This document shows, piece after piece, positions 20,040-22,260 of a DNA stretch of 64,000 nt. The notes under the pieces are model-generated. The model was not told the origin of the DNA and ran no database searches. It was given only the letters and a program-made list of their open reading frames with translations. Location: the NCBI RefSeq assembly GCF_988242995.1, contig NZ_OZ547043.1; one strand, written 5' to 3'. The number at the start of each line of letters is the position of its first letter. Positions within the stretch are counted from its first letter, which is position 1. The position numbers were made by a program, and so were the translations under genes.

Positions 20040-20750
20040 TTTGGCAATAAATATCCTCCGGCATAGCCGGAGGTTTTTCAAATGCGCCTATAAGGCTCTC
20101 TTACCAGCCGCGCCCTAACAGGCGCACACGATCTGACATTTGCATCCAACTTCGTTACTTACGGCCCGTAAACGGGCTGCCCGGATAGGGAATCGATAAC
20201 TGCTCTCCCATTTTATCCTCTTCAAGCTGGTGCTTTATGTAATCCTGTATCTTCGCCGTGTTCTTACCCACTGTATCGACGTAGTACCCTCTGCACCAGA
20301 ACTCCCTGTTCCTGTATTTGAATTTCAAATCACCAAACTGCTCGTAAAGCATCAGACTGCTTTTCCCTTTCAGATATCCCATAAAGCCGGATACGCTCAT
20401 TTTGGGCGGGATCTCCACAAGCATATGGATATAATCTGCACAGCATTCAGCTTCCAGAATCCGTACGCTTTTCCACTCACACAGCTTTCTCAAAATACTG
20501 CCTATTGCTCTACGCTTCTCTCTGTAGAACACCTGTCTTCGGTATTTTGGCGCAAAAACTATGTGATATTTACAGTTCCATCGGGTGTGCGCTAAGCTCT
20601 TTTCGTTCCCCATTGGGACCCCCTTTTGATTTCTTGTTTGACACTTGCAGTTGCCAGACCGCAAAGTGTTTTAACAAATCAAAAGGGGTTTTAATAACTG
20701 GCTCAAAGCTGAAAGCTTTCCGGAACCCCCAGCCTAGCTGGGGGTTTTCT
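20040..20750 (-). mobile_element. IS200-like insertion sequence (IS200/IS605 family), about 0.7 kb
   Basis: Contains tnpA (Y1 HUH transposase), an upstream 11-bp stem (cccttttgatt...aatcaaaaggg) around the tnpA RBS and a terminal hairpin aacccccagc-ctagc-tgggggtt at 20724-20747; boundaries are approximate (about 15 nt either way). Confidence 0.8.
20155..20613 (-). CDS. tnpA: IS200 transposase TnpA (152 aa)
   Basis: MGNEKSLAHTRWNCKYHIVFAPKYRRQ... is a near-match to remembered Salmonella IS200 TnpA; expected HUH position reads YIH. Confidence 0.88.
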   Translation of the reverse strand: MGNEKSLAHTRWNCKYHIVFAPKYRRQVFYREKRRAIGSILRKLCEWKSVRILEAECCADYIHMLVEIPPKMSVSGFMGYLKGKSSLMLYEQFGDLKFKYRNREFWCRGYYVDTVGKNTAKIQDYIKHQLEEDKMGEQLSIPYPGSPFTGRK

Positions 20751-22260
20751 GTGCACAATTATGCATGCTGAACATTCTTCCAGCATGTTTACTGTCACGG
20801 GCGTTAAGACCTAAAACTGTCCCCGTTTCACCTATGCGTTCTCTTCCACCATTACCGTTATGTGCAACAACTTGATTTATACCTAACATTTGTGAGCATG
20901 CTAATAGTTCTTCAAGTTTCGGTCTGTAATCTGTCGAAACAGAAAAATAACGATTAAAGGATCGACAAGAGATAGCCCGGCTAGTTTTAAACTTTTTACC
21001 ATTAATGATGGCATGATGCTTCTTATTAATAATTGCCGCTAATTCGACCGGATCGAGAGCATTGGTCATTTCATCAATAGAGACTGTTATCGGTCCTATA
21101 ATGTAACGTTTTCGCTGATCATCAAAAGTTATCCCATGATGATTTGCCATTATTTTGTATTTGGGGTCATAGAAACATACAGGATAATCTTTTATCCCAG
21201 CGTAGGTATCCTCATCAAGTGGTTTCATACGCGTGAAGTTCTGCATATAGTTACCATTGCAATTCGTTTCATGATTACCAGCTAATACATGAACATTTTT
21301 ATTAATACTCATTATGCGTTTTAACAAATCGATGATAAATTGATCGCCACAGATATTACTAAATCGATCGCCGGTTTGGTCACCCAGAAACGTACATGGC
21401 GTCACTGCGCCCTGATTAATAACTAAATATGGCTGAAGACTTTCTAAAACCACATCTCTTCTGTTCAGAATACTGATTATTGTATTAACATTAATGTCTA
21501 GTTCCTCATTAATTTTTTCCCTTAATAAAACGTTGAGAACTTCATCTTCTATATTAAGCAACTGGCTAAGAAAATTTACTTCTTCAGCCATAATTCCCAA
21601 ATGTCCCGTTGCGAAAAGCGCGTACAAAACTGCACCGACTGAGCCATCGGTATCACCAAAATAGGTTGGTCTGGTACTTGTGGGATCAACGGGTGAACAA
21701 TTGGAGAAATAGATTCTGTCAGCGAACTGGGGTTTTATAATTGTTTCGAATTTAATATCAGATACATTGTATTGCGATATTTTCCAGTTCCAGATGGGTT
21801 TGTACGACTCAGTAACTGCAACATCATTAGCATTATCATTTACTGTCATATTATTAAGTAAATAAACAATGCTGCACCAATTAATATCGGTATCATCAAG
21901 AGGGCAACCGTAATTTTTACTATTAATTGTCACAATAAACTGATAACTATTATTCCTACGTAGAATATGGGCACGCATGCCCGATAGCATACTATATTTT
22001 TCTGAATGATTCGTTTCTATGGTAAATGAAATTTTGTCATCTTGAAAAGATTGTTGGAAACGTTCTATTTGCCAATCATCAATTTTTTCCACAACTTCAC
22101 CGAGCATTGTCCTGGCAATACTTGATATATCATCACCTATACCATTTGCAATATACCCAAACAGTTCTTTAGTGAAGTTAGTAACATGCTCTTGCACCAT
22201 ATCATTTGTTGCGATAGTCGTTATACTGTCGTTAGTACCTGCCACAGTTCCAATTTTCAT
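20734..22260 (-). CDS. yhiJ: DUF4049-family protein (yhiJ-like), 508 aa; 3' end lies in the IS200 terminal hairpin
   Basis: Paralogous to the next ORF; stop codon TAG sits in the loop of the IS200 hairpin; contains GDxxDR...GNHE...HHG motifs. Confidence 0.7.
   Translation of the reverse strand: MKIGTVAGTNDSITTIATNDMVQEHVTNFTKELFGYIANGIGDDISSIARTMLGEVVEKIDDWQIERFQQSFQDDKISFTIETNHSEKYSMLSGMRAHILRRNNSYQFIVTINSKNYGCPLDDTDINWCSIVYLLNNMTVNDNANDVAVTESYKPIWNWKISQYNVSDIKFETIIKPQFADRIYFSNCSPVDPTSTRPTYFGDTDGSVGAVLYALFATGHLGIMAEEVNFLSQLLNIEDEVLNVLLREKINEELDINVNTIISILNRRDVVLESLQPYLVINQGAVTPCTFLGDQTGDRFSNICGDQFIIDLLKRIMSINKNVHVLAGNHETNCNGNYMQNFTRMKPLDEDTYAGIKDYPVCFYDPKYKIMANHHGITFDDQRKRYIIGPITVSIDEMTNALDPVELAAIINKKHHAIINGKKFKTSRAISCRSFNRYFSVSTDYRPKLEELLACSQMLGINQVVAHNGNGGRERIGETGTVLGLNARDSKHAGRMFSMHNCAQKTPS

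Follow-up and report, generated by a model that had tools for sequence, protein, structure and literature searches.

An IS200C insertion within the coding sequence of yhiJ truncates the gene and supplies its stop codon

The yhiJ locus

The window analyzed here is a stretch of 64,000 nt from contig NZ_OZ547043.1 (NCBI RefSeq assembly GCF_988242995.1). A complete IS200C insertion sequence was found on its minus strand, within a yhiJ gene that is read in the same direction, where it separates the greater part of the gene (yhiJ') from a displaced 3' remnant (Table 1). The presence of an IS200-family element between positions 20040 and 20760 had been proposed from the sequence alone, and the element does fall inside that interval. 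The original prediction also set the element against the 3' end of yhiJ, in the yhiI/yhiJ intergenic region, and neither placement held: the insertion point lies within codon 502 of 540, inside the coding sequence, and the yhiJ remnant and yhiY separate the element from yhiI. The locus should accordingly be annotated as a disrupted gene, with yhiJ' and its remnant flanking IS200C, and neither as a gene for a 508-aa protein nor as an intergenic insertion sequence.

Table 1. Positions in the window of the features discussed in the text
Feature	Position	Strand	Description
yhiY	19624-19737		small gene between the IS200C element and yhiI
Displaced yhiJ 3' remnant	19927-20045	minus	last two bases of codon 502, codons 503-540 and native stop; about 117 nt
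IS200C element, complete	20046-20756	minus	711 nt; from alignment to the empty site
Right-end subterminal hairpin	20055-20073	minus	8-bp stem, 9 nt from the right terminus
tnpA	20155-20613	minus	152-aa Y1/HUH transposase
tnpA 5' UTR region	20623-20746	minus	match to Rfam STnc490 (RF01405); antisense RNA art200 encoded opposite (PMC4513863)
Left-end hairpin	20724-20746	minus	arms 20724-20733 and 20737-20746; 10-bp stem, 100% complementary; 3-nt loop
TAG stop codon of yhiJ'	20734-20736	minus	in the loop of the left-end hairpin
Truncated yhiJ' ORF	20734-22260	minus	508 aa; native DNA from 20757 to 22260
Target pentanucleotide 5'-TAATT-3'	20757-20761	minus (top strand)	directly 5' of the left end; yhiJ codons 500-502
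Hairpin in the yhiJ coding sequence	20764-20787	minus	9-bp stem, 6-nt loop, 7 unpaired nt before the insertion point

Identity and boundaries of the element

The best empty site was found in E. coli strain Ecol_316, which aligns to window positions 19600 to 20048 and 20756 to 22400 at 99.4 to 99.8% identity with a 4-nt overlap, CAAT. The window reads X-CAAT-[707 nt]-CAAT-Y where Ecol_316 reads X-CAAT-Y, so that 711 nt have been added. Because CAAT flanks both sides, the register of the element is ambiguous by at most 3 nt (20046-20756 through 20049-20759). The net addition was exactly 711 nt at each of three filled/empty pairs (yhiJ, barA, and dgcN), and the element is best placed at 20046 to 20756 because deletion of 711 nt from barA::IS200C and dgcN::IS200C restores gap-free, intact genes, with 240 of 240 and 239 of 240 identities, respectively.

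For comparison, the window element was aligned with another 16 IS200C copies, which come from about 15 loci. The termini of the top (tnpA-sense) strand, 5'-GTGCACAG...TATTTATT-3', are constant in all 17 copies, and the length is 711 nt in every copy except one of 712 nt. The 5' flank ends in TT throughout the set, and the base 3' of the right end is variable. Reading the element as 707 nt flanked by a 4-bp "duplication," CAAT, was rejected, since the fourth base varies among copies and only AAT and C are constant. Alternatively, a 709-bp element with a 2-bp AA/TT duplication is compatible with the sequence and may describe the same arrangement.

The window element shares 99 to 100% nucleotide identity with annotated IS200C copies, differing at 0 to 6 of 711 nt from 15 of the others, and RefSeq labels the tnpA genes of the matching copies as IS200C family. 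Its product matches Pfam Y1_Tnp (PF01797; E value, 5e-37) and the NCBIfam equivalog transpos_IS200 (NF033573; E value, 1e-41; bit score, 142, against a cutoff of 55). As the sole gene of IS200C, tnpA is accompanied by no tnpB, and no other family-matching open reading frame was found inside the 711 nt. Both ends carry subterminal hairpins rather than terminal inverted repeats. The element is therefore a member of the IS200/IS605 family, IS200 group, IS200C, and it has the characters of that group with the exception of a mutated HUH motif.

Among the E. coli IS200C copies in RefSeq (99.2 to 100% identity), the left-end hairpin, structured 5' UTR, 152-aa tnpA, right-end hairpin, and target signature are all the same as in the window. 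IS608 of Helicobacter pylori encodes a homologous TnpA (E value, 3e-18) and likewise has subterminal hairpins at both ends; unlike IS200C, it also carries tnpB, and its target is TTAC. A close IS200 relative, IS1541 (IS200G) of Yersinia pestis, differs in its host and in its much higher copy number (PMC4513863).

Truncation of yhiJ

YhiJ' consists of native residues 1 to 502, which are collinear with YhiJ, followed by the six residues AQKTPS encoded by the element. The yhiJ frame extends 19 nt into the IS200C left end, through these six foreign codons, and is then closed by the TAG that forms the left-end hairpin loop (CTA on the plus strand). That the stop of the open reading frame would be a TAG within the IS200 terminal hairpin loop, and that the C terminus of YhiJ was thus truncated by an insertion supplying the stop, had both been foreseen, and both agree with our results. 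The hairpin had been given as 20724 to 20747; its start stands, and its end moves to 20746. Of the three frames in which the IS200C left end can be entered, two reach a stop codon within about 55 nt, and the yhiJ frame is the one that uses the loop stop.

The length of the intact gene was established by comparison with Ecol_316, in which a 540-aa yhiJ runs uninterrupted across the insertion point. The representative of the main YhiJ cluster at 90% identity (16,780 members) is also 540 aa long, as are the three full-length orthologues that were aligned (86%, 86%, and 57% identity), which bears out the length of about 540 aa given beforehand, against 508 aa for the open reading frame in the window. 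The difference of 32 residues does not represent a simple loss, since 38 native residues (503 to 540) are missing and six IS-encoded residues have been gained. As a YhiJ/YhiL family member, the 508-aa protein lacks the conserved C-terminal tail of the 540-aa orthologues.

An element lying in the spacer behind a naturally short, intact 508-aa yhiJ, with a hairpin TAG that merely coincides with the end of the gene, would resemble the YhiL-type paralogues, which stop at the equivalent position, and would suit the earlier assignment of the element to the yhiI/yhiJ spacer. We consider the probability of such an arrangement to be negligible. The gene at the empty site continues for 38 more codons, and these codons are still present at 19927 to 20045; IS sequence common to every IS200C copy makes up the final six codons of the 508-aa frame together with its stop; and the cluster representative and the aligned full-length orthologues all share the greater length. 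The boundary of the element lies 114 to 118 nt upstream of the native stop codon, not downstream of it. Insertion into the coding sequence of a full-length yhiJ is thus the reading followed here.

The displaced remnant also forms the C-terminal part of a 45-aa open reading frame (19927 to 20064). Expression of the stranded tail from this frame is unlikely, since it lacks an upstream Shine-Dalgarno sequence and would have to start at an ATG within the right-end hairpin loop.

Within YhiJ', the Pfam domain DUF4049 (E value, 8e-172) was found at residues 194 to 502, covering profile positions 1 to 332 of 333, compared with residues 194 to 503 in native YhiJ. All of the conserved GDxDG, GDxxGDR, and GNHE motifs of this putative metallophosphatase are retained.

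Rarity and authenticity of the insertion

The same insertion was not found in any of 5,426 complete E. coli genomes searched with 2.8-kb and 771-nt queries, none of their records spanning either junction pair. The yhiJ flanks were found in essentially all of these genomes and never together with the element. Over 20 kb, the closest complete genome, that of NY1601, reaches an identity of no more than 99.2%, and the source lineage is therefore not among the 5,426. A look-up of the exact YhiJ' protein returned Logan short-read contigs only and no NCBI protein. Two of these contigs were retrieved, one from sequencing run ERR14000664 and one from ERR15422818; they match the window at 100% identity over 4,531 and 2,398 nt, respectively, and each of them breaks off within the left-end hairpin, as would be expected at a repeat.

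IS200C is a multicopy element, present at up to 36 places per genome, that often breaks short-read assemblies, and this, together with the absence of the junction from any complete genome, would speak for a misjoin, induced by the repeats, between yhiJ and an IS200C copy. Such an artifact is nevertheless very improbable. The two junctions are exact at single-base resolution, and exactly 711 nt have been added, as at barA and dgcN; the target carries the hairpin and the TNNTT signature of genuine insertions; and the left junction recurs without a mismatch in two independent sequencing runs, so that it is not an artifact of one assembly. We therefore regard yhiJ::IS200C as a genuine insertion and, having been found in two sequencing runs and in none of the complete genomes, as a useful lineage marker. 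The account as a whole, comprising insertion of IS200C into the yhiJ coding sequence, truncation of the gene, and the consequences proposed below, is put forward with high confidence. Within it, the identity, boundaries, and orientation of the element, the reading frame, the truncation, the target context, and the rarity are demonstrated, and nothing was found that speaks against this structural part; hairpin termination, loss of YhiJ' function, and inactivity of TnpA are inferences.

Compared with other IS200C copies, that of the window differs in occupying a site found in none of the complete genomes, in being intragenic instead of lying behind a real terminator, and in carrying a rare allele of its transposase. 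In other respects this is an ordinary strain-specific disruption of a poorly understood gene by a common E. coli element, and it matters little beyond correct annotation. The element is a named one that acts as its family is known to, and truncation of a gene with a stop supplied by the insertion sequence is routine and already known. Of mild interest are the strict terminator-like target signature and the spread of the HUH-mutant allele, which are treated in the following sections.

Target site and route of insertion

The target pentanucleotide conforms to TNNTT in all 17 IS200C copies and is TTTTT in nine of the 16 others. The 45-nt stretch 5' of the left end folds in each copy into a stable hairpin with a T-rich run behind it, and most of the target sites in this set are evidently intrinsic terminators belonging to the upstream gene. 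IS1541 (IS200G) was reportedly also found beside terminator-like palindromes, by Odaert et al. in 1998. In yhiJ, the hairpin in the coding sequence is followed by CATAATT, and the element is inserted after the final TT. The yhiJ site thus mimics the hairpin and T-run targets of the other copies, which explains how an element that normally lies behind terminators is now found inside a gene.

Such an arrangement is similar to that of IS608, which also inserts 3' of a short target abutting its left end and without net target duplication. The guide sequences of IS608 occupy the place just 5' of the hairpin foot and pair with the target (PMC5027513). At both IS200C ends, an A-rich stretch, GAAAA(A), is found just 5' of the hairpin foot, a placement like that of the IS608 guides, and from this position it may act as a guide in IS200C as well. 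The GC skew of the plus strand of the window is -0.021, which puts the top strand of the element on the lagging-strand template, the preferred target of the IS200/IS605 family (PMC5027513); the agreement is weak but consistent. IS200C would have entered yhiJ by single-strand "peel and paste," 3' of the T-rich TAATT and 7 nt past the 9-bp hairpin.

Probable consequences for yhiJ expression

The 5' UTR region of tnpA matches the Rfam STnc490 model with a score of 144.6 bits (gathering score, 56) over model positions 1 to 124 of 124, and it folds with a z score of -6.1. The 23-nt pattern of the left-end hairpin occurs once in the window, with 0 occurrences expected in shuffled sequence. In Salmonella, the left-end inverted repeat of IS200 (nt 12 to 34) is a strong bidirectional Rho-independent terminator (PMC4513863) that ends about 85% of incoming transcripts (PMC5435999). 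Expression of tnpA is repressed in the Salmonella element by a second stem-loop, which conceals the Shine-Dalgarno sequence of the gene, and additionally by the antisense RNA art200 (PMC4513863, PMC5435999).

Transcripts of yhiJ, which run in the same direction as those of tnpA, would meet the left-end hairpin before any other part of the element, and by analogy with Salmonella most of them probably stop there. An effect of the element on local transcription, suggested beforehand, is reasonable in the light of the Salmonella IS200 work (PMC4513863, PMC5435999). On the yhiJ-sense strand, only two U residues follow the stem, and a simple terminator scan made no call at this position. A ribosome reaching the loop TAG would cover both arms of the hairpin and could melt it, lowering termination. 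Further insulation of the yhiJ remnant would come from the right-end hairpin. A promoter-like site at 19922 to 19895, just downstream of the remnant, is untouched, and there is thus no reason to expect a loss of yhiY or yhiI expression.

The Salmonella insertions, including the original polar hisD984::IS200, are likewise located in coding sequence, and in them the left-end hairpin terminates incoming transcription and the structured 5' UTR and art200 repress tnpA (PMC4513863, PMC5435999). The element described here differs in being the variant of another species, in that the disrupted gene reads in the direction of tnpA, and in that the reading frame of that gene stops in the hairpin loop.

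Probable consequences for the YhiJ protein

The lost tail is conserved among orthologues and is therefore probably needed for the role specific to YhiJ. In the E. albertii orthologue, 20 of the 38 tail residues are identical, compared with 57% identity overall. We infer that yhiJ' is, most likely, a hypomorph or a null, and the gene itself is dispensable: the Keio knockout of yhiJ is viable, its failure to grow on myo-inositol being a weak functional hint (PMC3423039), and a 20-kb deletion that includes yhiJ arises in laboratory evolution (PMC11633386). The predicted structure of YhiJ has a mean pLDDT of 60.8, with residues 466 to 540 below 50, too poor to judge the packing of the tail, and a search of PDB sequences with YhiJ yielded nothing meaningful.

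YhiL-type paralogues end naturally at the position where YhiJ' is cut, and a YhiJ' without its tail could still work. On this basis the insertion might be near neutral or even selected, YhiJ' being an active, YhiL-like enzyme for which the element provides a stop codon and a terminator, and perhaps couples yhiJ to the IS200 5' UTR RNAs. The complete DUF4049 domain with its motifs, the paralogues of the same length, and the persistence of the insertion in at least two further sampled isolates are in line with this proposal, as is the observation that in Salmonella a trans-acting small RNA corresponds to the 5' end of IS200 tnpA (PMC5435999). We consider it unlikely, though it deserves more credit than the misjoin discussed above, because a comparison of E. 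coli with E. albertii shows the missing tail to be conserved to the same degree as other parts of YhiJ, because the absence of the insertion from the complete genomes gives no sign of spread, and because drift suffices for persistence in a gene that is dispensable (PMC3423039, PMC11633386). Loss or reduction of YhiJ function remains the preferred reading.

Transposase and the H61Y allele

Codon 61 of the window tnpA (20431 to 20433) is TAT instead of CAT, giving the substitution H61Y, and the HUH motif consequently reads Y61-I-H63, with Tyr125 present. This is the sole amino acid difference between the window TnpA and those of nine copies from complete genomes. In an alignment with solved TnpA structures, Y61 stands opposite H64 of IS608 TnpA, the first histidine of the HUH motif, and Y125 opposite the catalytic Y127, and mutation of H64 inactivates IS608 TnpA (PMC3597680). 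The window TnpA thus lacks one of the three catalytic residues (the two HUH histidines and the tyrosine), and by this alignment it is probably inactive and the copy nonautonomous. The copy is still a member of IS200C, defective as it is, because its DNA is otherwise identical to that of active-type copies. The insertion would be stable unless another copy supplies TnpA.

To count the two alleles, a 55-nt query centered on the variant was used, which seeds only if the central base matches. The His61 allele was found at 7,786 places, 7,359 chromosomal and 427 on plasmids, and the Tyr61 allele at 141 places, 7 chromosomal and 134 on plasmids. The exact Tyr61 protein was found in other assemblies at five further loci (rplT/pheM, icd/ymgL, tynA/feaB, kdsA/ldr, and fadR/ycgB). 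The 711-nt element is identical at yhiJ, rplT/pheM, and icd/ymgL, and those at tynA/feaB, kdsA/ldr, and fadR/ycgB are other copies, at least three of these being on different haplotypes.

An identical H61Y element at three loci is awkward for a fully immobile allele, barring mobilization in trans or gene conversion, and the allele may have spread by either of these routes or by recurrent mutation. A more elaborate possibility is that H61Y copies are mobilized in trans or homogenized and are kept for the small RNA from the 5' end of tnpA and for art200; at the present locus, translation of yhiJ' could then melt the terminator and tie the 5' UTR small RNA to yhiJ expression. This scheme strikes us as rather improbable. 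The rare HUH-motif allele nonetheless offers a modest clue to the persistence of IS200 copies. Two of the Tyr61 plasmid copies were examined and found to be decayed relics beside bcsZ and bcsC.

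Target context of IS200C

The insertion in yhiJ shares its target context with the other copies of this element. When the sequence immediately 5' of the left end was compared between the window copy (positions 20757 to 20787) and the copies at loci L002 to L010 and L013 to L021, a stable hairpin followed by a T-rich run was found directly 5' of the left end in all 17 IS200C copies examined, and the 5' flank conformed to TNNTT in 17 of 17. Most of these 17 sites are intrinsic terminators belonging to the gene upstream. At both ends of IS200C, GAAAA(A) lies immediately 5' of the foot of the hairpin and could serve as a guide sequence by pairing with the T-rich target.

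Features of the yhiJ-IS200C region (window coordinates)
Feature	Position	Strand	Remarks
45-aa ORF	19927-20064	minus	ATG in right-end hairpin loop; runs into stranded yhiJ 3' tail
tnpA codon 61	20431-20433	minus	H61Y in HUH catalytic motif; window IS200C copy, related loci L013-L022
STnc490 (Rfam match)	20623-20746	tnpA sense	
Truncated yhiJ, native part	20757-22260		DUF4049
yhiL-like paralogue	22525-24111		DUF4049

Ends of the element

The Rfam match to STnc490 lies on the tnpA-sense strand. In published accounts, STnc490/art200 is an RNA antisense to the tnpA 5' untranslated region. On the plus strand, the left-end hairpin is followed by TTTTCT, and together these would be a putative art200 terminator, directed outward from the element into the end of the truncated yhiJ. 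The 45-aa ORF across the right end is in frame with the stranded yhiJ tail (711 = 3 × 237) and is probably not expressed, because no Shine-Dalgarno sequence precedes it and its ATG is located within a hairpin.

Distribution of the H61Y tnpA allele

The Tyr61 codon is rare in complete genomes, with 7 chromosomal and 134 plasmid places compared to 7,786 for the His allele. At least five further chromosomal loci encode the exact H61Y TnpA protein. The IS200C copies at rplT/pheM and icd/ymgL are identical to the window copy (711/711), and other copies with H61Y represent at least three distinct haplotypes. This spread over loci and haplotypes may reflect recurrent mutation, gene conversion, or trans-mobilisation. 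Two of the 134 plasmid matches with the Tyr61 codon were examined (L023 and L024, both on E. coli plasmids); each is a decayed IS200 relic beside bcsZ/bcsC pseudogene fragments, which lacks the right end of the element and has a tnpA frame changed at its start and at its end.

The yhiJ and yhiL-like genes

DUF4049 contains the motifs GDTDG, GDxTGDR, and GNHE and has Pfam matches below threshold to Metallophos (E value, 0.005) and WipA_Phos (E value, 0.024). The top matches of a low-confidence AF2 model were Legionella WipA and E. coli ApaH (E values, about 1e-3 to 1e-2). DUF4049 proteins thus resemble divergent metallophosphatases, which is at odds with the myo-inositol oxygenase role suggested for YhiJ in the literature. 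The GC contents of yhiJ and its paralogue are 36% and 34%, respectively (20757 to 24111), versus 56 to 59% for the adjoining yhiI and rbbA (15762 to 19561), and the YhiJ orthologues found were all from Escherichia. The two genes have the look of an islet gained long ago by horizontal transfer.
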